A stretch of DNA of 64,000 nucleotides from an uncultured Gammaproteobacteria bacterium (GTDB taxonomy: Bacteria > Patescibacteriota > Patescibacteriia > Magasanikbacterales > GWA2-37-8), in NCBI GenBank assembly GCA_964355175.1, contig CAYHBZ010000002.1, positions 396,537 through 460,536 on the forward strand. The letters run 5' to 3'. Below, in pieces: positions 7,955 to 58,892 of the stretch (its first letter is position 1; every line of letters begins with the position of its first letter). Made by a program: the position numbers and the translations under genes. The notes below the pieces were generated by a model, which ran no database searches, was not told the DNA's origin, and worked only from the letters and a program-made list of their open reading frames with translations.

Positions 7955-8072
7955 AATCAGTTAAAATCAAATTTAACACCACGAATTATTGCGCCAGGTT
8001 TTGAGAGAGGCCCTAGCAATACATATAGACAGCTAGGTTAATTCTCTCTCAAAGGAGAATTTTTTACTTGTC

Positions 8073-8084
8073 GTTCTTTACAAT
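8073..8084 (+). repeat. 12 bp direct repeat GTTCTTTACAAT, copy 1, at the 5' boundary of high-GC cassette 1
   Basis: Exact 12-mer, also present at 8940-8951 and 10397-10408. Each copy lies 75-170 nt upstream of a high-GC ORF. Confidence 0.55.
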
Positions 8085-8245
8085 AAATAGTGCTGAGCCC
8101 ACATGAGATCAAGAATTTCTTGATTTGATGCGGGTTCAGTGCACACAGCATTGACGTCCTCCGCGATTTTGCGGATTCGTTCAGTGCTGCGTACTGCAGC
8201 CAGGTCACGCGCCCACCTCAGTGGCGTTTCGTTCAGGAGTTTCCG

Positions 8246-8779
8246 ATGACCACCGCAAAGCACCCCGATCCGAACCATCCGGACCCCGGCACCACCGAAG
8301 AGCCCGTCGTCGACAAGGCGAAGGGCGACACGGTGGTGACCACGACGACCACCACGAGCGTTTCGTCGGCCGAGCCCATCAAGGCAAAGCCGGTGGCGAC
8401 CACCGACACCACGGCTGGCAAGACGGCGACCCAAGAGCCCAAGAAGGGTGGCTGGCCGCTCGGGACCATCGCCGGAGCTGTCGTGCTCGGTCTTCTGCTC
8501 CTCGGCGGCGTCTACTGGTTCGGCAGCCACAACAGCAGCACGCCGGTCGTCCCGCCCATCGCGGTCGCCGGTTGCTGTCTTCCCCAGGCCACCGTCGCGA
8601 GCCCCTGCTGCCCGCAACCGCCGGCTCCGCCCCCGCCGCCCGCCCCCGTCGTCAAGAAGAAGACGGTCGGCGAGTGCGTCGCCCAAGCCGTCGCCGGCAT
8701 GGAGGTCGCCCATGAGGACGACCGCCTCGCCGCGATGGACGGCGCCCGCGAAGAATGCGAGGAAGAATACGGCAAGTAG
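8246..8779 (+). CDS. High-GC hypothetical bitopic membrane protein with a Thr-rich N-terminus, one TM helix and a Pro/Cys-rich C-terminus
   Basis: About 68% GC ORF with RBS 'aggag' 8 nt upstream and a GC-rich hairpin downstream. The overlapping minus-strand ORF is judged a GC-shadow ORF. Confidence 0.5.
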   Translation: MTTAKHPDPNHPDPGTTEEPVVDKAKGDTVVTTTTTTSVSSAEPIKAKPVATTDTTAGKTATQEPKKGGWPLGTIAGAVVLGLLLLGGVYWFGSHNSSTPVVPPIAVAGCCLPQATVASPCCPQPPAPPPPPAPVVKKKTVGECVAQAVAGMEVAHEDDRLAAMDGAREECEEEYGK

Positions 8780-8939
8780 CCGTTCCTGTCTCGCGTCGCT
8801 ATGTCGGTTCGGCGGGCCCTCAGCAATGAGGGTCCGCCGGCCGACTGGCTCGAATAGGACCTTTGTAGATTCCACTAGGGAAACTCCAAAGGTCCCCTAG
8901 ATTACATTCTTTTGGAAACAAGAGGATGTTGATAGGAAA

Positions 8940-8951
8940 AGTTCTTTACAA
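8940..8951 (+). repeat. GTTCTTTACAAT, copy 2, at the boundary between cassettes 1 and 2
   Basis: Exact 12-mer. Followed by an 8 bp inverted repeat, ttcccacc...ggtgggaa. Confidence 0.55.
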
Positions 8952-9196
8952 TTAAAACCAACAAAATTTTTTCCCACCTAAAAAGAATTATTATTTATAG
9001 TAATTCACTCTCGGTGGGAAAAAGTGTGGCGGAAATTCCGTTGCATAGCCTCCGACAGAGTCCCAATTGGGGCAAGTGCCCCGCGTGCGGGCTACTCTGT
9101 TACAGCGACCATTTCTGGGAAGCTGACCGAACGGCCCGCACGGCCGGTGTTCCAGTGTCTTGGTTTCGTGGGGTGAAAGTCCCCTGGAGTACAGCG

Positions 9197-10192
9197 ATGA
9201 ACAAGAATTCGAAGTTCCACAACCTCAGCATCTTGCTGACCCTGGCCATGGGGATCATGGTCGCTTCCAATTCCTACGCCGACGTGGCCACGGCTCGCGC
9301 TCGTGCCGAAGCCGCTCGTAGCCAGGCCAATCGGGCTGAGGTGAAAGCGGTCGACGCACAGACTGCGGCCAACGCGGCCAAGACCGGCGCCACCAACGCC
9401 CAGACCGCGGCCGATCAGGCCAAGGTCGAAGCGACCGCGGTGGGCACCAAGGCGGCCACTGACCTCGCTACGGCGATCCGCGCCCTCAACGGTGCGGTCG
9501 GCGGTGCGCGTGCGGCAGCGGTCAACGGTGATCGTCAGCTCGAGCGCAAGTTCAAGGCGGAGGCCGAGCGCCTTCAGACCGAGATCGAAGCGCTCAAGAA
9601 GCGGGCGCAGCACGAGTGTGCGGCGTTCGATGACAAGGGCAGCCAGGCGGCCTGTCTGACCATGCTCGAGAAGATCAACGCCAAGAACGGCGAAGTCACC
9701 ATGCACGGGCAAGACAAGGACACGGAGGTCCAGATCGCCAAGGTGGGACAGCAGTCCAAGGTGGTCCAGGAGATCTTCGACAACGCAAACCAAAACATGG
9801 ACGCCATCAAGGCGATCCAAATGGGTTGCGTCAACCAGGCCTTCGTCGACAAGGACGGCGTCAGCAAGAGCAAGTGGGAATGCCCCAAGGACATGAAGCG
9901 CGGCCCGCAGTTGCGCTACGAGCTCACGAACGTCTCGAAGTACGGCGACCACAGCGTCGTCATCGAGCCGGCCGAGAGCGGTGGCAATTCCAAGTGGGGC
10001 AAAGTGCTCGGCTTCGGCGCCATCGGTGGTGCTGCTGGCGGTGCTCTTGGCTGGGCCTTCTTCCCGAACCATGAAACCATGGAAGATGGCAGCGTCATGC
10101 ACCGGAATTACACCGGTCTCGTCGCTGGCACGGCCATCGGTTTCGTGGTCACGGCGGTGGCCACCCTGGTCATCGAAGAACTGACCGAATAG
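9197..10192 (+). CDS. High-GC secreted/membrane protein with a signal peptide, an Ala-rich helical region and a C-terminal TM anchor
   Basis: Start chosen at MNKNSKFHNLSILLTLAMGIMVASNSYA, a signal-peptide-like sequence. The ORF track begins at 9014. Gly-rich TM helix at the C-terminus. Confidence 0.5.
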   Translation: MNKNSKFHNLSILLTLAMGIMVASNSYADVATARARAEAARSQANRAEVKAVDAQTAANAAKTGATNAQTAADQAKVEATAVGTKAATDLATAIRALNGAVGGARAAAVNGDRQLERKFKAEAERLQTEIEALKKRAQHECAAFDDKGSQAACLTMLEKINAKNGEVTMHGQDKDTEVQIAKVGQQSKVVQEIFDNANQNMDAIKAIQMGCVNQAFVDKDGVSKSKWECPKDMKRGPQLRYELTNVSKYGDHSVVIEPAESGGNSKWGKVLGFGAIGGAAGGALGWAFFPNHETMEDGSVMHRNYTGLVAGTAIGFVVTAVATLVIEELTE

Positions 10193-10396
10193 GTCAACGG
10201 GTGAGGAGATCACCCCAAAGGATTGCAAGTGTGTTGGTTCACTTGCGCCAAATCTCGGTGTAGCTTATCTTGTCCCGCATTCGCGGTACGAGAGAAAGTT
10301 CACTAAACCGGTGGCGTGAACGATGGCTCAAATAGAGCTGTCGGTCACGCCCCAACAACTATCTTCTGTTTTTCAAACAGGGGATTGAGTTGGTAA

Positions 10397-10408
10397 GTTC
10401 TTTACAAT
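10397..10408 (+). repeat. GTTCTTTACAAT, copy 3, at the boundary between cassettes 2 and 3
   Basis: Exact 12-mer. Followed by a 15 bp-stem hairpin, ttctcatacaggaca...tgtcctgtgtgagaa. Confidence 0.55.
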
Positions 10409-10641
10409 TTATTTCGTTAGATTTTCTCATACAGGACATAGGATATTTTTTGTATCTTGTGTCCTGTGTGAGAAGCCCCCAGTGGGGGTTGCCTGGGTGA
10501 AAACCCGACTAGGTCGGGGCGTTCGCTCCGGCAATTCCTCACTAGGGTGGTAAAAACGCCATCCGGACGGGTCAACTTCGACCTTTTCGGTAAAGTAGCA
10601 GTGTCTTTCTTTGTCCGCCCTTTAGTGGGCCGGAGGTTCTG

Positions 10642-12063
10642 ATGCGTAACCGGTTTCAATTGGTCGCGACTCTCGCGATGGCGGCTGCAGCCTGTGCAGC
10701 GTGTGGTGTCATCGAACATCCGGCCGATGCGGTCGTGATCGTGGTCGAAAAAGACGCCAGCAGCCAGGATGTCCAGCAGGACAACGGTCCGGCGCAGCAG
10801 CCCGAGATCGCGCAGACGGCCGACATCGCGCAGGACAACGGTCCGGCGACGAAGCCTGAGTGCGCGGTCGACAGCGACTGCGACGACAAGAACCCCTGCA
10901 CGACGGACGTCTGCGGCAGCAACGCCTGCGTCCACGTGGCCAACTCGGTCTCGTGCGACGACGGCAACGCCTGCACCAGCAACGACAAGTGCGGCTCCGA
11001 GAAGTGCTCGGGTGACCAGAAGGTCTGCGACGACAACAACCCCTGCACCGACGACGGCTGCGTCAGCGACGGCACCTGCCTGCACGGCGTCAACATCGTC
11101 AACTGCGACGACAGCGACGCCTGCACGGAAAAGGACCAGTGCGCCAACGGTAAGTGCGTCGGCCAGGTGAAGTCGTGCGACGACAAGGACAACTGCACGA
11201 CGGAATCGTGTGACAAGCTCAACGGGTGCTCGTCCACTCCGGTCGTCTGCCAGGACGCCGGGGATCCGTGCACGACGGAATCGTGCGACAAGGCAACGGG
11301 CAAGTGCTCGTCCACCACCGACTGCGACGACAAGGACGTCACCACGTTGGATGCCTGTGAACCGCTGCTCGAGACCGTGGGAATGGAGAAATGCCTCCAC
11401 ATCAAGATGCAGACCAAGTGCACCAAGAATGCGGATTGCGACGAGGACGGCGATCCGTGTTCGTTCGAGTTCTGTTCCCAGATCGGCTACTGCGCCAGCA
11501 AGTGGAAGTTGTGCGATGACGGAGACTACTGCACCCAGGACGAATGCGTCCCTCAGGCCGACTACGCCTGGTGCAAGAGCACTCAATACTCATGCGACGA
11601 CTACAACGCCTGCACGCTGGACTCCTGCACCAACGGCTACTGCCAACACAAGGGCAACGCCGCCATGTGCGACGACAAGGACTCCACCACCGCCGACTCG
11701 TGCAACCCTTCCCAGGGCTGCGTCAACACGCCGATTCCTCAACCCGGCGTGCCGAGCTCGACTCCTCCCTCGAATCCCTCGACCTGTGCGGCCTGGGGAG
11801 CGTGGATTTACTTGCCCACGGGCAACTGGCGCGGCGGCTATGACCTGACCGGTTCGTCTTCGCAAGAAACGGACCTGACAATCAGCGTCGACCAGTGGTA
11901 CGGCTTCAGCAACGCTCATTCTGTGTGGGCGTGGCTCAAGCCGTGGGGCAGTGCGGTACCGGCAAGCGTCAAGTGCACTGATCGGTGTGGTGTGGTCTTC
12001 CCCGCGAAGATCAGTGCCATGGCGGGTGGCTTCATCGCCATCTGCAGCACCGACCAGAAGTAG
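10642..12063 (+). CDS. High-GC putative lipoprotein with about 10 tandem Cys-rich repeats (C-D-D-x-N-x-C-T-x-D-x-C), resembling Myxococcales-type cysteine-rich repeats
   Basis: Signal peptide ending AAACAAC (lipobox-like). Repeated units 'CDDKNPCTTDVC' and 'CDDNNPCTDDGC'. RBS 'ggagg'. Internal DNA tandem repeats mirror the protein repeats. Confidence 0.6.
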   Translation: MRNRFQLVATLAMAAAACAACGVIEHPADAVVIVVEKDASSQDVQQDNGPAQQPEIAQTADIAQDNGPATKPECAVDSDCDDKNPCTTDVCGSNACVHVANSVSCDDGNACTSNDKCGSEKCSGDQKVCDDNNPCTDDGCVSDGTCLHGVNIVNCDDSDACTEKDQCANGKCVGQVKSCDDKDNCTTESCDKLNGCSSTPVVCQDAGDPCTTESCDKATGKCSSTTDCDDKDVTTLDACEPLLETVGMEKCLHIKMQTKCTKNADCDEDGDPCSFEFCSQIGYCASKWKLCDDGDYCTQDECVPQADYAWCKSTQYSCDDYNACTLDSCTNGYCQHKGNAAMCDDKDSTTADSCNPSQGCVNTPIPQPGVPSSTPPSNPSTCAAWGAWIYLPTGNWRGGYDLTGSSSQETDLTISVDQWYGFSNAHSVWAWLKPWGSAVPASVKCTDRCGVVFPAKISAMAGGFIAICSTDQK

Positions 12064-12330
12064 GCGGGGCTCAGGGGGTCTAACGGAAAAAGTTTTTGCT
12101 CTTTGGTAAAAGCAAACGGAAGGAGGTGTTCCTTTCGATAGGCCATTTCGGCCACCCATGCCAGAGGCGAGCGATCGCTAAAGGCTGGTCAACTAGGGGT
12201 GGTGTTGCTTCACCGCACACCACCCCGACCATCTCTAGCTCACAATATCTGTTGTGATCTGAAGATGGAAATAGCAATATGTCCATGACAAAAATACCAC
12301 CCTTCTCTCGGGCGGTTTTTTGTTTTTTAA

Positions 12331-18154: not shown

Positions 18155-18306
18155 AATAAGTCGTTTGTTCTTTATTTGGCAGGATAATTTTGGATTAAAA
18201 TTTTTAATTCAGAGTTATCGTGCCAACTTTCTCAATGCGTGTCGGCGAAATGCGTCGATATGTAAAGAGAGGTGCGAGAGCCTACATGGTAGGCAGGAGA
18301 GCAGGA

Positions 18307-19122
18307 ATGGCAGACAGCAGCCACAACGTTACTCAGGTCGGCATCACCGTCGGGCCGCCCAACGCCGATCTCGGCAGTGTGGTGGTTCGTCAGGAGGCGG
18401 CCAGGGCGGATCTCAATGAGCGGCGTACGCATCTCAGCTTGGTTGTCAAGCCCTCGGTCGATGATCTGGTCGCGCGGCTGAATGTCGAGCGGCAGGAAGT
18501 CGACCGCATCGGCGCGCTGGTCGATGCGGTAGAGCGCGAACAGGCGAAGAGCGTCAAGCACTTCGAATCGACGCTCGGCGGGCAGGCGCGGCTCTGGAAG
18601 AAGGGTTTCGACGCCCATGAGCGCTCGATCTTCTGGGTCAAGCTCCTCGGCGTCGTCGGCCTGGTCCTGGTCGGTATCGTCCTGGTCCTGAACCTGTCGT
18701 CCTCCTCGGACATCTCCACGGCCAAGTCGGAAGCCATCTCGGCCAAGACCACCGTGGCGGAGTTCAAGAAGGCCACCCAAGGCGAGGTCGTCAAGATCAA
18801 GAAGAGGCTCGATGCCAACAAGCTCGACATGGATCAGCTCAAGGATCAGATCAAGGTCGTCGGGCTCAAGGCTGACAAGAGCGTCGTCACTCGCATGGGC
18901 GAAGAGCTCAAAGAAGCCAACATCGAGCAGGACGGTCGGATCCAGGACATCGCCACCGCGATCATGGGCAAGGCCGACATAGCCGATCTCAAGAGCGTGA
19001 GGAGCGCAGTCGCGCAGGTTCGCCGGGCCAACGGCAAGGTGAACACGAAGATGACCAGGCTCGAAGCTCAGGTCCTGGAGCTCAAGGCCCAACTCCAGGC
19101 CCAACAGCCCAAGACCATGTAG
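18307..19122 (+). CDS. High-GC bitopic membrane protein with one TM helix and a coiled-coil C-terminal domain
   Basis: ATGGCAGAC start with RBS 'aggagag'. The ORF track starts at 18220. TM helix 'VKLLGVVGLVLVGIVLVLNL'. Confidence 0.5.
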   Translation: MADSSHNVTQVGITVGPPNADLGSVVVRQEAARADLNERRTHLSLVVKPSVDDLVARLNVERQEVDRIGALVDAVEREQAKSVKHFESTLGGQARLWKKGFDAHERSIFWVKLLGVVGLVLVGIVLVLNLSSSSDISTAKSEAISAKTTVAEFKKATQGEVVKIKKRLDANKLDMDQLKDQIKVVGLKADKSVVTRMGEELKEANIEQDGRIQDIATAIMGKADIADLKSVRSAVAQVRRANGKVNTKMTRLEAQVLELKAQLQAQQPKTM

Positions 19123-19193
19123 TCCGTTCCCGATCTGTTCGGGCACTTGTAGTTTAGCCTTGATTTCTGAAGGCAAAAGCTCGGTGAGGACGC

Positions 19194-19300
19194 AAAATCC
19201 CCCCAAGGGTGTGTCGTTTACTCGACACTACCTGCTTAGTTCGCAAAAAATTGTTTGCTGAGCAGAATAAAAAATCCGCTATTATGGTGGATTTTTTAAT
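19194..19300 (+). repeat. Conserved ~110 nt structured 3' element, family M1, copy a
   Basis: Aligns along its length with 20125-20238. The internal hairpin changes from gtgtcg/cgacac to gtgccgac/gtcggcac with pairing preserved. Ends in a hairpin plus U-tract. Confidence 0.55.
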
Positions 19301-19330
19301 CTAAAATATGCTGTTTTTAGGTCAGTAGTA

Positions 19331-19359
19331 TTGACAAAGTAGGATTTTTATGTTTTAAT
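19331..19359 (+). promoter_or_regulatory. sigma70-like promoter (TTGACA-17-TTTAAT) for high-GC gene 5
   Basis: TTGACA at 19331-19336. The 5'UTR is homologous to that of gene 4 (shared ttgttcttt...attaaaattttt). Confidence 0.4.
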
Positions 19360-19504
19360 AGTTCATTAGATTGTTCTTTTTAATCAATTCGCGCGACAAT
19401 TATAAATTAAAATTTTTCAATTTATAATCGTCGTGCGAATTTCAGTTTATCAATGACGGCCAGTCGGAGGTTCCGATTGGTTCAGCTCTTTCTGCGAGGT
19501 GAGC

Positions 19505-20074
19505 ATGGTTGATTTCAATCCCCCGGATCCAGTGGATCCAGAGAAGAAAAAGAAGCCTTCGTCGGCTGTGGAGACAGACCACAATTGGGAAGCCTGGGCC
19601 AACGATAATTCGGTCGATGACGGCAGTCATCCTCTGCCTGGTGAAGCCGAATACGTCGGACGGTCCGACCTTCCCATGACACGGGCACAGAAAGAGCGCA
19701 TCGCCGCGATCGTAGTCGGTACGGCCTTCCTGGTGTTGGTTTTCTTTGTCATCAATTTCGCTATCGGCAACAAGCTCAAGCATTCTGAAGCGGCCTCGTC
19801 CAACGAGGCTGGCAAGCAGAGCGCTCAGGCAAGTGCCGAAGTAGAATTGAAGGCAGAAGAAGCCGCCTCAGAGCAGGATCATACGGTCTCGCTGCCGGAT
19901 CACGCTTCGCAGGAAGATGATCTGGACGATGCTCGCGCGACCATCAAGGTCGTCGGTTTGGAGAAACGGCGCGTTCGAGATCCAGAGATGGAGCGGATCG
20001 CCGCAACCATCAAGATCGTGCCACTGCGTGTCAGTCCTGTCGCGGTACCGCTTCCAGCGGCCGCTACTCAGTAG
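19505..20074 (+). CDS. High-GC bitopic membrane protein with one TM helix
   Basis: ATG at 19505, alternatively the GTG at 19499. TM helix 'IAAIVVGTAFLVLVFFVINFAI'. No family recognised. Confidence 0.5.
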   Translation: MVDFNPPDPVDPEKKKKPSSAVETDHNWEAWANDNSVDDGSHPLPGEAEYVGRSDLPMTRAQKERIAAIVVGTAFLVLVFFVINFAIGNKLKHSEAASSNEAGKQSAQASAEVELKAEEAASEQDHTVSLPDHASQEDDLDDARATIKVVGLEKRRVRDPEMERIAATIKIVPLRVSPVAVPLPAAATQ

Positions 20075-20124
20075 TAGTCAAACATACTTTGAACCTAAAA
20101 GTGTGTGAGACTCCTGAACAGGAC

Positions 20125-33793: not shown

Positions 33794-34000
33794 ATCGGAT
33801 ATTCTATCAGAAATAAGGGTATTTTACAAGGAATAAAAAATACCCTACCAAAGGTAAAGTATTTTTATAATAATGCCTATTTTACCGAGATCTCCTGTTA
33901 AATTTTTACCAATATATTTGATAAAGATTTAGCATTGGGAGATCTTGGTGGACCGCGACCTCCCAACGCCAGACTTGCGTCGGTCTGTCGGTAGGCGAGT

Positions 34001-34354
34001 CTACCAGGCGCCCATGGGCTGAGACGTAGGCTTGGCGACTTCCAGTTCCTGGGCCGTGGCCAGACGCGCTCCGGCACAGGTGCCCAGCACCCACTGGATC
34101 ACGAGCAGGTCACCGACCTTGGTCTCCTTGGGGACGAACAACGGGAAGCCGCTGCGGTCCTCGTCGGCTCCGCGCTTGTGTTCGTTCTCTGCGAAGTAGC
34201 GATGGCCGCTCTTGTCGCTACGTCCGAGCACGTAGAAGATCGGAGTCTCCGGATGCTGGTCGGCGTTGTTGCTGTCGCGACGGATGAGTTTGCCTTGGGG
34301 TACAAAGATACCGACACCGGTTTCGAGCCGGAAGACACCGTGAAAGATAAGCAT
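34001..34354 (-). CDS. High-GC hypothetical protein (117 aa)
   Basis: High-GC ORF with RBS 'aaggac'. Has its own TTGACT-17-TATATA promoter at 34401-34429 (minus strand). Confidence 0.45.
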   Translation of the reverse strand: MLIFHGVFRLETGVGIFVPQGKLIRRDSNNADQHPETPIFYVLGRSDKSGHRYFAENEHKRGADEDRSGFPLFVPKETKVGDLLVIQWVLGTCAGARLATAQELEVAKPTSQPMGAW

Positions 34355-34400
34355 TGATTGTCCTTGAGTTGCATCAACCGAAACGCTCGGCTGATATGAT

Positions 34401-56121: not shown

Positions 56122-56206
56122 GGAGAGGTCGCATAGTGGCCGAGTGCGCCGCCTTGGAAAGGCGGTATACCGCAAGGTATCGAGGGTTCAAATCCCTCTC
56201 TCTCCG
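56122..56206 (+). tRNA. tRNA-Ser(GGA)
   Basis: Hand fold with anticodon loop TTGGAAA, long variable arm and T-arm GAGGG-TTCAAAT-CCCTC. No encoded CCA. Hairpin terminators at 56236-56270 and 56300-56330. Confidence 0.7.
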
Positions 56207-56405
56207 CTGGGTCACGCTTATATGAGCAAAGGGTTCATATTCCAAAAACATCTCGACTAAGTCGGGATGTTTTTTTACCAGATAAAAAAATAATTCTTCA
56301 TAAAAACACACCGTCGGGTGTGTTTTTATATTGACAAAAATGTATTTTTAGTATAGGCTCTAGCCTGATCGTTCTCGCGGATTTCTCGCGCTACAGGAGG
56401 ACATC

Positions 56406-56774
56406 ATGGCAGATTCTCTGCCGTTCCAAGAAGATCTGCGTAAGCCATTCCACATCTCAGTCTGCGACCGGATCGCTCTCTGCCTCACGGCAATGAGCAT
56501 CTCCGGTGGAAGGGAGATCCCGCTCGGCATCCAGGAGGTGACCAGAGACCTGGATCTCTTGGACAAGACCAAGGTCCCGGCCAAGGAACTGCCCAGTGTG
56601 ACAAAGGCCCTCTACGGCCTGCGGGTGATGTACGGCCCTCTCATGCCGACGGTTTCTCAGCGCCTGACCCAATCGATCGACCTCTTGGTCGTGTATCAAG
56701 AGGAGCTGGCCGAGGATGGCAAGCTGGATCGCGACCTCGTGTGGTTGCCGCCTGTCGTCGACCCGGTAGCCTAG
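56406..56774 (+). CDS. High-GC hypothetical protein (122 aa)
   Basis: RBS 'aggagga' 6 nt upstream. Long imperfect hairpin plus U-tract downstream (56890-56960). Confidence 0.45.
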   Translation: MADSLPFQEDLRKPFHISVCDRIALCLTAMSISGGREIPLGIQEVTRDLDLLDKTKVPAKELPSVTKALYGLRVMYGPLMPTVSQRLTQSIDLLVVYQEELAEDGKLDRDLVWLPPVVDPVA

Positions 56775-57041
56775 CTGGTCTGTAGATTTTCACCCGGTCT
56801 TCGTCTATGTCCGGGTTGAGAGGTGTTCATACACCACTCCGTCCCGACTTAGTCGAGACGTGAATCACCGCAAGGTAGTGACGAGAACATCAGACATTCA
56901 GACTGTTCGCGCTCACTTAAGATTATAACTTGATTATAGTTTTAAGTGACGAACAGTCTTTTTGTTTTTTCTAAAGGATATTTTATAGATACGGATGGCA
57001 ATACTTTTGGTTTGCATCAGCCGGATGAAAAGGCGGCATAA

Positions 57042-57070
57042 TTGACTTTTTTGAATTTAATCGCTAAAAT
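57042..57070 (+). promoter_or_regulatory. sigma70 promoter TTGACT-17-TAAAAT
   Basis: Counted directly. About 35 nt upstream of the ATG at 57106. Confidence 0.5.
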
Positions 57071-57105
57071 GGTGTTCAGCCATTTTGGCTTTTTGGAGTT
57101 TCGCC

Positions 57106-57327
57106 ATGAGTGTAAAATATCGTCCGGGAACCGGCAGGGAGCCGCGCATCTTCCATGAGAGTATGGGCTTGCCCAGCCGGACGGTCGTTCAGATCGACTG
57201 GTGGACCTGTCCGAACCTGATCGTGAAGGATGAGCAGTTCGGAAATCGCGAACTCTGTGACTTTCAGAACCCGTCTTGGGAACACAAGTGCCAGGGTTGC
57301 GGTGCCGATCGTCCCGATAAGTCCTAG
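57106..57327 (+). CDS. High-GC small protein with a C-terminal RanBP2-like zinc-finger motif (W-x-C...C-x3-N-x6-C-x2-C)
   Basis: Start at MSVKYRP; the ORF track begins at 57085. 'DWWTCPN...CDFQNPSWEHKCQGCGADRP'. Confidence 0.5.
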   Translation: MSVKYRPGTGREPRIFHESMGLPSRTVVQIDWWTCPNLIVKDEQFGNRELCDFQNPSWEHKCQGCGADRPDKS

Positions 57328-57335
57328 GAGGACTC

Positions 57336-57456
57336 ATGCGTATCCGCGCACCCCCGCCTTAAAAAAGGCACAGGGAAGTAGCGGAATAAAAACCGCCGCC
57401 AACCTGTTTTGTTTCCAAATACAATTGGAGATGGGATAGGCTGGCGGTTTTTTGTT
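57336..57456 (+). other. Module M2, copy a: mini-ORF MRIRAPPP-stop followed by a terminator hairpin with a conserved loop
   Basis: RBS 'aggagga' overlaps the upstream TAG. The 9-codon ORF spans 57336-57362. Hairpin aaccgccgcc...ggctggcgg plus U-tract at 57388-57456. Confidence 0.5.
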
Positions 57457-57511
57457 TGACTTCCAGAGAGGGATTTGATAGTTTTGATGGGCGCAAATTT
57501 CGCGCCAACCA

Positions 57512-57925
57512 GTGAGGAACACAATGACTTGTGGTCAACGTCGCAAACTGCGTCTTGATATGATCGTGGTCAAGGGCTGGAACGGTCGTCGCCTCTCCAA
57601 GGGGTGTCGGAAGTACATACGCCGTCACCTGCCTCTGGAATGGCAGGCGATCGAGGATCGTGCTCAACAGGAGCGTGAGCTGGTGCGGCAGATCGAGCTG
57701 CACAAGGCGGCTGCTCGCAACAAGCAGACGGCTACGCGGCCGAGCTTCTCCGCGCCGTCGTTCGCTACGGCGAAGCCTGCACCGGTGCCGGTCAAGCCTC
57801 CGCGGGATCCATGGTGGACCTGCAAGGCCGAAACCAAGGGAGGTTATTTCTCCGGCGCCTGCAACGAGCTGAACTACAGTAATACCTCCTGCACCTACTG
57901 TGGTGCGGCTCGCCCGGCAGCGTGA
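57512..57925 (+). CDS. High-GC protein with a basic N-terminus and a C-terminal RanBP2-like zinc-finger motif (paralogous C-terminus to 57106)
   Basis: 'PWWTCKAETKGGYFSGACNELNYSNTSCTYCGAARP'. Confidence 0.5.
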   Translation: MRNTMTCGQRRKLRLDMIVVKGWNGRRLSKGCRKYIRRHLPLEWQAIEDRAQQERELVRQIELHKAAARNKQTATRPSFSAPSFATAKPAPVPVKPPRDPWWTCKAETKGGYFSGACNELNYSNTSCTYCGAARPAA

Positions 57926-57931
57926 GGAATC

Positions 57932-58054
57932 ATGCACTACTCCACCGGACCGCCTTGAAATATAGGTGGGCAGGGCGGAGGAAGATTACATCGACCACCA
58001 AACTGCTTTGTATGAAAATTTTTTATATAGAGCAGAGTGGTCGATGTTTTTTTA
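57932..58054 (+). other. Module M2, copy b: mini-ORF MHYSTGPP-stop followed by a terminator hairpin with a conserved loop
   Basis: RBS 'gaggaa'. ORF spans 57932-57958. 11 bp perfect stem acatcgaccac/gtggtcgatgt plus U7. Confidence 0.5.
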
Positions 58055-58064
58055 TTTGAAATAC

Positions 58065-58093
58065 TTGACAAAAGCTCTATTTTTGTCTATAAT
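58065..58093 (+). promoter_or_regulatory. Consensus sigma70 promoter TTGACA-17-TATAAT
   Basis: Perfect hexamers with a 17 nt spacer. Confidence 0.55.
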
Positions 58094-58197
58094 CATTAGT
58101 TAATTAATGGTCATCATATGATGCACGCCCAAAGAGGTTGGTCGTGTTTCATACCGTGATCCGTTAAGGAACATGGGCAACTCGCGTAGGGGGAAAT

Positions 58198-58746
58198 ATG
58201 TTGGAAATCATTTTGGAACCGAAGCTCAAGAACAAGTTCCTGACCGCTCGGGTCAAGGCGCATTGCGGGGTCATGACATGGTCGTTTTGCACCGCTGAAG
58301 GCGGTGTGGCGATCATCGAAGCGTTCGTCCGCGAACGCGTCTGGGGCTGGCAGGAAACTCGTCCGCTCTGCCGCCAGATGGAAGCGACTTTCCCCAAGGA
58401 TGCCAGCAAGTTGGCCGCCTGGCTCAACATGTTCGAGTCCTCCTCGTGCGATGTGGCCGTTCAGCCCATCCATCTCGTGGATCAAGCCGGCGCTTCCCTC
58501 GCTATCAGTGGCAACCAGCTGCATGATGGTGTGGTCGCTACGATCGGTACGGCCGTCTGCATGCTGGATCACTACCTCGTTCGCGGGGTGTTGCGCAACG
58601 GCGACTGCATCTCCGCGACGCAGCAGATGCTCCAGGCTGGCATGACCGACGTCATTTCGGAAAAGGCGTTTCGTGCTTTGACCGGTGGCATTCCGCTGTC
58701 CGGTTTCAACGAGTACGACTACCGTCGGATGGTCGGTCAACTCTAG
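58198..58746 (+). CDS. High-GC hypothetical protein (182 aa, Cys-containing, soluble)
   Basis: RBS 'aggggg'. The overlapping minus-strand ORF is judged a shadow. Confidence 0.5.
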   Translation: MLEIILEPKLKNKFLTARVKAHCGVMTWSFCTAEGGVAIIEAFVRERVWGWQETRPLCRQMEATFPKDASKLAAWLNMFESSSCDVAVQPIHLVDQAGASLAISGNQLHDGVVATIGTAVCMLDHYLVRGVLRNGDCISATQQMLQAGMTDVISEKAFRALTGGIPLSGFNEYDYRRMVGQL

Positions 58747-58763
58747 TCAAAGAGGAGGAGAAC

Positions 58764-58892
58764 ATGGTTTCTATCCGTGCTCCGCCCCGATAAAGGGCGA
58801 TAGGAAGGAGTACGGAGACAAAGAAAGCCGCGCACCAACCTATTTTGTTTCTAAATTTTTGGAAATAGAATAGGGTGCGTGGCTTTTGTTTT
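58764..58892 (+). other. Module M2, copy c: mini-ORF MVSIRAPPR-stop followed by a terminator hairpin with a conserved loop
   Basis: RBS 'gaggaggag'. ORF spans 58764-58793. Stem gccgcgcacc/ggtgcgtggc plus U-tract. Confidence 0.5.

Follow-up and report, generated by a model that had tools for sequence, protein, structure and literature searches.

Two paralogous small proteins with a putative RanBP2-like zinc-ribbon module at a variable locus of a Magasanikbacteria genome

In a 64,000-nucleotide stretch of a Magasanikbacteria genome (contig CAYHBZ010000002.1, positions 396,537 to 460,536; hereafter the window), two adjacent plus-strand genes, which we call A and B, encode small proteins ending in the same four-cysteine module. 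Our reading, to which we give a probability of roughly 0.5 as a whole, is that A and B are real, paralogous proteins restricted to this lineage of the candidate phyla radiation (CPR, Patescibacteria), that their C-terminal modules are zinc ribbons related to the RanBP2-type finger and serve in binding, and that both are accessory genes followed by conserved 3' modules. They belong to an orphan, CPR-restricted family of small proteins. The comparisons bear out the RanBP2 likeness in part: among described families the RanBP2 type comes nearest to this putative zinc ribbon, but the module is not a bona fide member of that family.

The shared cysteine module and its nearest relatives

The two genes, the promoter-like site of A and the parts of the predicted proteins are these:

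57042..57070, plus strand: promoter-like site for A, TTGACT-17-TAAAAT; all relatives keep both this site and the 5' leader
57106..57327, plus strand: gene A, 73 amino acids (aa); open reading frame (ORF) with a Shine-Dalgarno (SD) site; six orthologues; ratio of nonsynonymous to synonymous substitution rates (dN/dS) 0.27-0.55
57199..57315, plus strand: putative zinc module of A, W32-W-T-C35-x15-C51-x3-N55-x6-C62-x2-C65-G-A-D-R-P70
57524..57925, plus strand: gene B, 133 aa, isoelectric point (pI) 10.1; ORF with GAGGA, 5 nt, then ATG; orthologue P0002 69% identical; dN/dS 0.36
57599..57733, plus strand: long alpha-helix predicted in B (residues 26-70 at a length of 133 aa, 14-58 at 121 aa); AlphaFold2 predicted local distance difference test (pLDDT) about 77-92
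57812..57916, plus strand: putative zinc module of B, W97-W-T-C100-x12-C113-x3-N117-x5-C123-x2-C126-G-A-A-R-P131

Both ORFs lie on the plus strand where the initial annotation had placed them. A starts at an ATG 7 nt after a GGAG; B, which ends at 57925, could start at GTG 57512, ATG 57524 or ATG 57560, and public gene callers make it 121 or 133 aa long. We use the 133-aa form (ATG 57524) because GAGGA sits 5 nt upstream. Upstream of B the promoter-like site, judged by eye, fits the consensus only weakly, and the two genes would be expressed from separate promoter-like sites. A terminator-like hairpin with a T-run (57063-57089), conserved in all relatives, overlaps the -10 element of the A promoter and may be either the terminator of upstream read-through or part of the A leader.

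The N-terminal parts of the two proteins are unrelated, as first noted, and by composition B is indeed the strongly basic one (pI 10.1), A being neutral to acidic (pI 4.6-6.7). In A, which has exactly four cysteines in all, a disordered-looking stretch of about 30 residues carrying a conserved P-x-I-x-H-E-S-T-G-L-P patch precedes the C4 module; B runs from a basic N-terminus through a long helix and a Pro/Ala-rich linker to a C4 module of its own.

When all six frames of the 64-kb window were scanned with a regular expression, the full motif W-W-T-C-x15/12-C-x3-N-x6/5-C-x2-C-G-A-x-R-P was matched by A and B only, and the common C-terminus originally proposed, W-W-T-C-x(12-16)-C-x3-N-x(5-6)-C-x2-C-G-A-x-R-P, is found in both, with spacings x15 and x6 in A and x12 and x5 in B. 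The two proteins match each other in pairwise BLASTP (expect value, E, 9e-4), and the profiles of their families align in hhalign with a probability of 93% (E 2.8e-7). This profile-profile match brings all four cysteines into register; the modules are homologous, and A and B are paralogues. MAFFT applied to the A and B modules together misplaced the second cysteine, and family-wise alignments with hhalign were used instead.

The orthologues of A are P0004-P0007 and an uncalled gene in L010 and L011 (31-70% identity; L numbers denote the loci of relatives), and B has one, P0002. The expectation that the cysteine pattern would persist in homologues is borne out in each one found, six of A type and two of B type. 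The A-type sequences read W-x-C-x14/15-C-x3-N-x2-W-x3-C-x2-C, with x14 in L010, and are invariant at W33, C35, V40, E43, E49, C51, N55, W58, C62 and C65; the B-type sequences have spacings x12, x3 and then x5 (B) or x4 (P0002), and both retain W-T-C, C, N and C-x2-C-G-A-A-R-P. The cysteines, tryptophan and asparagine do not vary in these eight sequences, down to 31% identity.

The module had been likened to a RanBP2-type finger; a weak and partial profile similarity to that family stands, but the Pfam score and the first knuckle both place the module outside it. A is similar to PF00641 (Zn_ribbon_RanBP) over its residues 51-71 (E 0.0023, 17.6 bits), and PF00641 was matched by five of the five A-family members scanned, with a best E of 3.1e-4 and all below threshold; the only other zinc-ribbon match in the A-family Pfam scan was Zn_ribbon_LapB, in one member (E 0.76). 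The A-family profile, searched against all PDB sequences, found the RanBP2 finger of FUS first (6g99, E 0.029) and RBM10 next. Against an uncurated set of eleven canonical RanBP2 fingers, which gives a lead only, hhalign gave 93% (E 2.9e-7) for the A family, over the C2-C4 half only, and 43% (E 2.5e-4) for the B family, in an alignment that covers the finger from end to end, pairs the W-x-C of B with that of RanBP2 and inserts 10 residues behind it. Fingers of this type (PF00641; FUS, RBM10, ZRANB2, and the NZF of Npl4/TAB2) share with both proteins the four cysteine ligands, the W-x-C at the first cysteine (W-[TVN]-C in 8/8 sequences, T being the middle residue in A and B) and an x3-[RK]-P ending behind the fourth cysteine; with A they also share the second half C-x3-N-x6-C-x2-C and a tryptophan three residues after the asparagine (NFSW in FUS, NPSW in A).

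Several results weigh against placing the module in the RanBP2 family. The proposed search with PF00641 did return A, but at a score under the 27-bit gathering cut-off and over profile positions 10-30 of 30 only (a coverage known for A alone among the family), and it did not return B, which has no Pfam match at E<=10. The first knuckle of RanBP2-type fingers, C-x(2,4)-C, is absent, so that the PROSITE-style pattern W-x-C-x(2,4)-C-x3-N-x6-C-x2-C is not matched; in its place A has C-x15-C (C-x14-C in L010) and B has C-x12-C, and in the A family the intervening loop is itself conserved (V-V-[RK]-D-E...E-P) and weakly predicted by AlphaFold2 to be an inserted beta-hairpin. The RanBP2 spacing C-x3-N-x6-C-x2-C, first ascribed to both proteins, holds in all six A-family sequences but not in B, with N-x5-C, or in P0002, with N-x4-C. 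In the PDB search archaeal eL40 zinc ribbons nearly equalled FUS (E 0.37-1), so the likeness may be generic to zinc ribbons. On the fold, two crossed beta-hairpins around one zinc ion in RanBP2 fingers, the AlphaFold2 models built from two-sequence alignments are too weak to speak either way, with a pLDDT of 43 for A and below 50 for the zinc module of B, and Foldseek found no usable match to them in PDB. Finally, RanBP2 fingers sit in eukaryotic multidomain proteins, whereas A and B are stand-alone bacterial proteins of 70-130 aa.

In our reading each protein ends in one Cys4 metal site, most likely for zinc and of zinc-ribbon type; the second half of the module (C-x3-N-x2-W-x3-C-x2-C-G-A-x-R/K-P) would be a distant relative of the RanBP2-type finger, and the tight first knuckle (C-x2-4-C) would have been swapped for a conserved beta-hairpin loop of 12-15 residues. 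That a hairpin of this kind can stand in for the first knuckle of a RanBP2-like finger helps in classifying domains, though it is no surprise. On its own, the pair brings one more very small family of zinc ribbons, none of them annotated, to the many orphan genes of the CPR.

The best-surviving alternative is that A and B carry a zinc ribbon of a generic kind, bacterial or archaeal (zinc_ribbon_2, DZR or eL40-like), whose likeness to RanBP2 is convergent, or extends no further than the Zn beta-ribbon clan, and implies no particular tie to RanBP2-type fingers in evolution or function. Small prokaryotic zinc-ribbon proteins (eL40, zinc_ribbon_2/DZR, haloarchaeal zinc-finger micro-proteins) are likewise tiny, with one C4 ribbon, and have in common with A and B the pattern C-x3-N-P...C-x2-C-[GR]; the spacing C-x3-N-x6-C-x2-C-G is typical of widespread prokaryotic zinc ribbons too. 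The closeness of eL40 to FUS, the sub-threshold Pfam match to half of a domain and the non-canonical first knuckle all speak for this alternative. Yet among the Pfam zinc-ribbon families it is essentially PF00641 alone that the A family matches, and A and B have no significant match to any family of small prokaryotic ribbons, families not known for a W-x-C start, a long first loop or an R-P tail; the W-x-C before C1, the tryptophan three residues after the asparagine and the x3-[RK]-P tail are, by comparison, RanBP2-like. Both zinc_ribbon_2 and DZR are absent from the hmmscan output. We consider a generic ribbon unlikely, although a real contender, and prefer a ribbon related to the RanBP2 type.

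We infer zinc binding, the fold and the kind of partner from sequence. RNA or ubiquitin-like partners are usual for this domain, as the initial annotation pointed out. In the fingers that bind single-stranded RNA (ZRANB2, FUS, RBM5 and RBM10), an aromatic residue and an arginine after the asparagine (N-[FW]-x-x-R or NFSWR) contact GGU; the A family has NPSW followed by E, Q, D or L, and B has NYSN. Ubiquitin-binding NZF fingers (Npl4/TAB2) have T-F after the second cysteine and a hydrophobic residue about 10 positions later; the residues after C2 are DF, DF, GL, GG, EA and EG in the A family and NE and DE in the B family. The signature residues of neither subclass are conserved, so a role in binding RNA or ubiquitin cannot be carried over to A and B from these fingers. 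PHROGs, NCBIfam and PADLOC returned no meaningful match to A, B or the neighbouring ORF122 and ORF182, and no partner, annotated neighbour or defence-system model match constrains what A and B do. These points, too, count against our reading.

We read the module as a compact and rigid surface that would recognise a macromolecular partner. B would have it tethered through the Pro/Ala linker to the long, strongly basic helix, and this combination makes nucleic-acid binding most likely, with RNA or the ribosome as the most plausible target; B is probably a binder of that sort. A, neutral to acidic and with its conserved HESTGLP patch, would rather be a small adaptor, more likely one that binds protein.

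Conserved 3' modules and their mini-ORFs

A conserved SD, a mini-ORF ending in prolines and a long terminator close each of A and B. In the alignment of the window with L001, the DNA just 3' of each gene of the island in which A and B lie is better conserved than the genes themselves, and the DNA of these 3' modules is 85-88% identical where the A proteins are 33-49% identical. A module consists of a strong SD at or after the stop codon, a mini-ORF of 8-9 codons whose 3' part lies in a small hairpin, and a terminator hairpin of about 30 bp with a T-run. Such modules span 57325-57456, 57923-58062 and 58747-58892 in the window and are present also in L001, L003, L005, L006, L007, L010 and L012. 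Their parts in the window are:

57336..57362, plus strand: mini-ORF after A, MRIRAPPP then stop, type I; its SD, AGGAGGA, overlaps the A stop codon
57386..57455, plus strand: terminator hairpin and T-run after A; ten pairs with compensatory changes (type I)
57932..57958, plus strand: mini-ORF after B, MHYSTGPP then stop, type S; its SD overlaps the B stop codon; in frame with B
57982..58054, plus strand: terminator hairpin and T-run after B
58764..58793: mini-ORF after ORF182, MVSIRAPPR then stop, type I

The mini-ORFs are of two types. Type I encodes M-x(1-2)-I-R-A-P-P-[PRQ]-(Y) before its stop and follows A in the window and L003, and ORF182 in the window, L001, L006, L010 (with a GTG start) and L012; all 7/7 copies are intact with a strong SD, and the IRAPP codons read ATC CGY GCN CCN CCN, every difference being synonymous. 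Type S encodes M-x-x-[SP]-T-G-P-P before its stop and follows B in the window and L001 and A in L005 and L010, the orthologous copies reading MRYSTGPP, MKRSTGPP and MKHPTGPP; in L006 and L007 the type S RNA is conserved with its start codon or reading frame lost. A blastn-short search found no further copies elsewhere in the window, and no Rfam family reached its gathering score between 56200 and 59000, the best match being a terminator-like similarity to SpF43 (33 vs 70 bits). Read-through of the B stop codon (TGA) would append GIMHYSTGPP (57923-57958), and in L006 a start-less TGPP frame (1178-1216) is likewise in frame with the A-like gene; the in-frame placement is probably a coincidence, other copies lying in other frames.

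RAPP is a documented core of ribosome-arrest peptides, and RxPP alone has been reported to suffice (PMC10951233). Published work describes RAPP as refractory to EF-P and as depleted from the proteomes of bacteria, and reports an enrichment of RAPP-like motifs at the C-terminal ends of small upstream ORFs (PMC12992588; also PMC7897499, PMC10987492). Because IRAPP is conserved and RAPP is a published arrest core, the type I mini-ORFs probably stall ribosomes. Like the known RAPP arrest peptides (ApdA, ApdP, ApcA, CruR) they have an R-A-P-P core near the C-terminus, here 1-2 residues from the stop, and an isoleucine precedes the core as it does in the IRAGP of SecM. They differ in that 8-9 codons are too few to fill the exit tunnel, in having no sensor (signal or transmembrane) domain, and in lying 3' of a gene and before its terminator, in place of a direct masking of a downstream SD. 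The TGPP ending of type S is not a described arrest core.

Classical attenuation, in which a stalled ribosome frees an antiterminator, was rejected: the terminator is the minimum-free-energy structure with or without a ribosome footprint, and constrained folding found no conserved alternative antiterminator pairing in the modules, a further difference from RAPP arrest systems.

The modules raise the possibility that A and B matter chiefly as regulatory cassettes, whose translation delivers ribosomes to a RAPP or GPP mini-ORF where a stall decides what becomes of the mRNA or how the gene that follows (B, ORF182 or trhO-suf) is expressed. The mini-ORF SDs that overlap the stop codons of both genes would suit this, as would modules far better conserved than genes whose synonymous divergence (dS) is saturated, the retention of IRAPP through synonymous changes only, and the record of RAPP as an arrest motif with a preference for the C-terminal end of small upstream ORFs (PMC10951233, PMC12992588). 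However, the invariant Cys, W and N residues and a dN/dS below 1 indicate that the A and B proteins are themselves selected, the terminator stays intact under an imposed ribosome footprint, which leaves no antiterminator, each following gene has its own promoter-like site, though that of B is weak, and two type S copies lack a start codon. We regard a purely regulatory role as improbable and retain the reading of A and B as selected binding proteins.

Should ribosomes indeed stall on the mini-ORFs, no shorter natural RAPP arrest unit would be known; sited at the 3' ends of genes and lacking a sensor domain, these units would suggest a new use of peptide-mediated arrest, for instance in protection of mRNA 3' ends, in ribosome queuing onto the upstream stop codon or in the control of read-through. 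They would also give a minimal arrest system, open to direct testing, in a phylum whose gene regulation is almost unexplored.

The locus, its relatives and selection

The locus is bounded by tRNA-Ser(GGA) at 56122-56207 and a trhO-sufCBD-sufS-nifU operon that begins at about 58951. Between them the window holds ORF122 (56406-56774), a VOC/glyoxalase remnant (56946-57041), A, B and ORF182 (58198-58746), in that order before trhO. Relatives have a different content upstream of trhO:

L010, L011: ORF117, intact VOC, A, ORF183
L007: VOC, A, ORF182-like gene; the contig ends there
L012: VOC, ORF182; no A
L005: A, AT-rich 356-aa ORF
L006: truncated ORF122, A, reversed GT2, ORF185

B is seen only in the genome of the window and in L001/L002, L007 and L010 being without it. 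Given this variable gene content among relatives, A and B are accessory genes, and the spot that they occupy, enclosed by tRNA-Ser and trhO-suf, is a variable one. B has the look of a paralogue specific to its lineage, in which a diverged copy of the A finger was joined to a new N-terminus. Because unrelated genes take the same spot in relatives, an insertion hotspot accounts for the adjacency to suf better than a functional link does.

That adjacency bears on another alternative, namely that A and B bind iron as rubredoxin-like proteins, or are Fe-S-related proteins tied to the trhO-sufCBDS-nifU operon next door. Their Cys4 site with a C-x2-C-G knuckle, their location always just upstream of trhO-suf and a very weak match of one member to a rubredoxin-type family (E 0.76) would agree with this. 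However, rubredoxin has two C-x2-C-G knuckles where these proteins have a single CxxCG, neither Pfam nor NCBIfam yielded a rubredoxin match of any weight, A is missing in L012 and B in most relatives while trhO-suf is unchanged, and unrelated genes (the 356-aa ORF, GT2) fill the same spot elsewhere. We think an iron protein highly improbable and a zinc ribbon the better description.

Relatives of the pair are rare. An exhaustive search of 1.84 billion representatives yielded a family of 4 clusters, and word-index searches gave 2 matches each for A and B; all relatives lie on Magasanikbacteria-like contigs syntenic with the window, one of them labelled Candidatus Magasanikbacteria. Scans of IMG/VR, a metagenome DNA-pattern scan and tblastn against phages added nothing new and returned no phage or IMG/VR relative. 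The sole match in a scan of GTDB species representatives, a Terracidiphilus candidate, was discarded as spurious, having no zinc-finger ORF.

Substitution rates in the pair and its flanks were:

A: dN/dS 0.27-0.55; dS saturated in many pairs
B: dN/dS 0.36; dS 0.63
trhO (flank): dN/dS 0.08; dS 0.86
sufC (flank): dN/dS 0.02; dS 0.69

Both genes are under purifying selection. The dS of B is close to the 0.69-0.86 of trhO and sufC, which argues for vertical inheritance, and the rates overall support coding, vertically inherited, fast-evolving genes. Open antisense frames, present in the window and in some relatives, are to be expected in GC-rich DNA; the SD sites, promoter-like sites, terminators and cysteine pattern are all on the plus strand. 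That A and B are spurious frames, or that the real gene runs antisense (57359..57937, minus strand, 192 aa), might be argued from the long ORFs that such DNA yields in several frames, those antisense frames among them, and from the failure of some gene callers to call A (L010, L011), but against plus-strand SDs with start codons, promoter-like sites and terminators, a plus-frame cysteine pattern invariant across 8 sequences, a plus-frame dN/dS well below 1 and a plus-frame GC content at third codon positions (GC3) far above that at second positions (GC2), we give the idea next to no weight.

The VOC/glyoxalase remnant just upstream of the A promoter is the C-terminus of a gene (…GNTFGLHQPDEKAA followed by a stop); since VOC is intact in L010, L011 and L012 (132 aa), the gene was lost in the lineage of the window. 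A 20-nt inverted repeat, 95% complementary (56248-56267 and 56842-56861), brackets the ORF122 promoter and body, one copy being the terminator hairpin after tRNA-Ser and the other lying in the ORF122 3' region, and may be a trace of insertion or inversion at a tRNA-proximal hotspot. The ORF122 3' region (56775-56975) is conserved with L003, shows apparent compensatory changes in two hairpins, ends in a long terminator hairpin with an AT-rich tip and holds an 18-codon ORF with no SD (MSGLRGVHTPLRPDLVET, then stop). Between B and ORF182 (58065-58197) a perfect sigma-70-like promoter, TTGACA-17-TATAAT (12/12), is followed by a 5' leader of about 100 nt that is highly conserved in six loci, with a hairpin showing apparent compensatory changes and no Rfam match; it may be a structured cis-regulatory leader of ORF182.

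A class of GC3-rich accessory genes

The four genes of the island have a GC3 of 0.69-0.77, against 0.32-0.43 in neighbouring housekeeping genes, and the intergenic DNA is AT-rich. Further GC3-rich blocks lie at 8.0-12.2 kb, 18.2-20.1 kb and 34.0-34.4 kb of the window. More finely, the class (GC3 0.62-0.87) occupies 8000-12200, 18200-20100, 34000-34360 and 56400-58750, with AT-rich spacers between. The A family keeps a GC3 of 0.53-0.69 in every lineage despite saturated dS, and in L010 an AT-rich VOC gene stands between GC3-rich genes. A single recent transfer of the whole GC-rich block is disfavoured, because the dS of B (0.63) and of ORF182 (0.50) is comparable to that of the flanks, and because of the interleaved AT-rich VOC of L010 and the high GC3 of the A family in all lineages.

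A reduced-genome symbiont keeps GC3-rich, fast-evolving accessory genes among normal AT-rich genes over saturating divergence, bracketed by regulatory modules far better conserved than their proteins, some with RAPP-type mini-ORFs. This class of genes, together with the conserved RAPP/GPP mini-ORF-terminator modules, is more unusual than the zinc-ribbon pair itself. A more ambitious and rather doubtful picture would make the locus a modular array of fast-evolving GC3-rich accessory genes, each ending in an ultra-conserved 3' module whose mini-ORF is coupled to the gene in translation and acts with no sensor domain; into this array the zinc-ribbon proteins would be wired as a CPR-specific derivative of the RanBP2 finger.

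In the first of the other GC3-rich blocks, a GC-rich ORF of 473 aa (10642-12063, plus strand) has a likely signal peptide and Cys-rich repeats of the Dictyostelium type (PF00526 Dicty_CTDC, E 5e-25). It gives this CPR genome a further GC3-rich gene with a domain named from eukaryotes.

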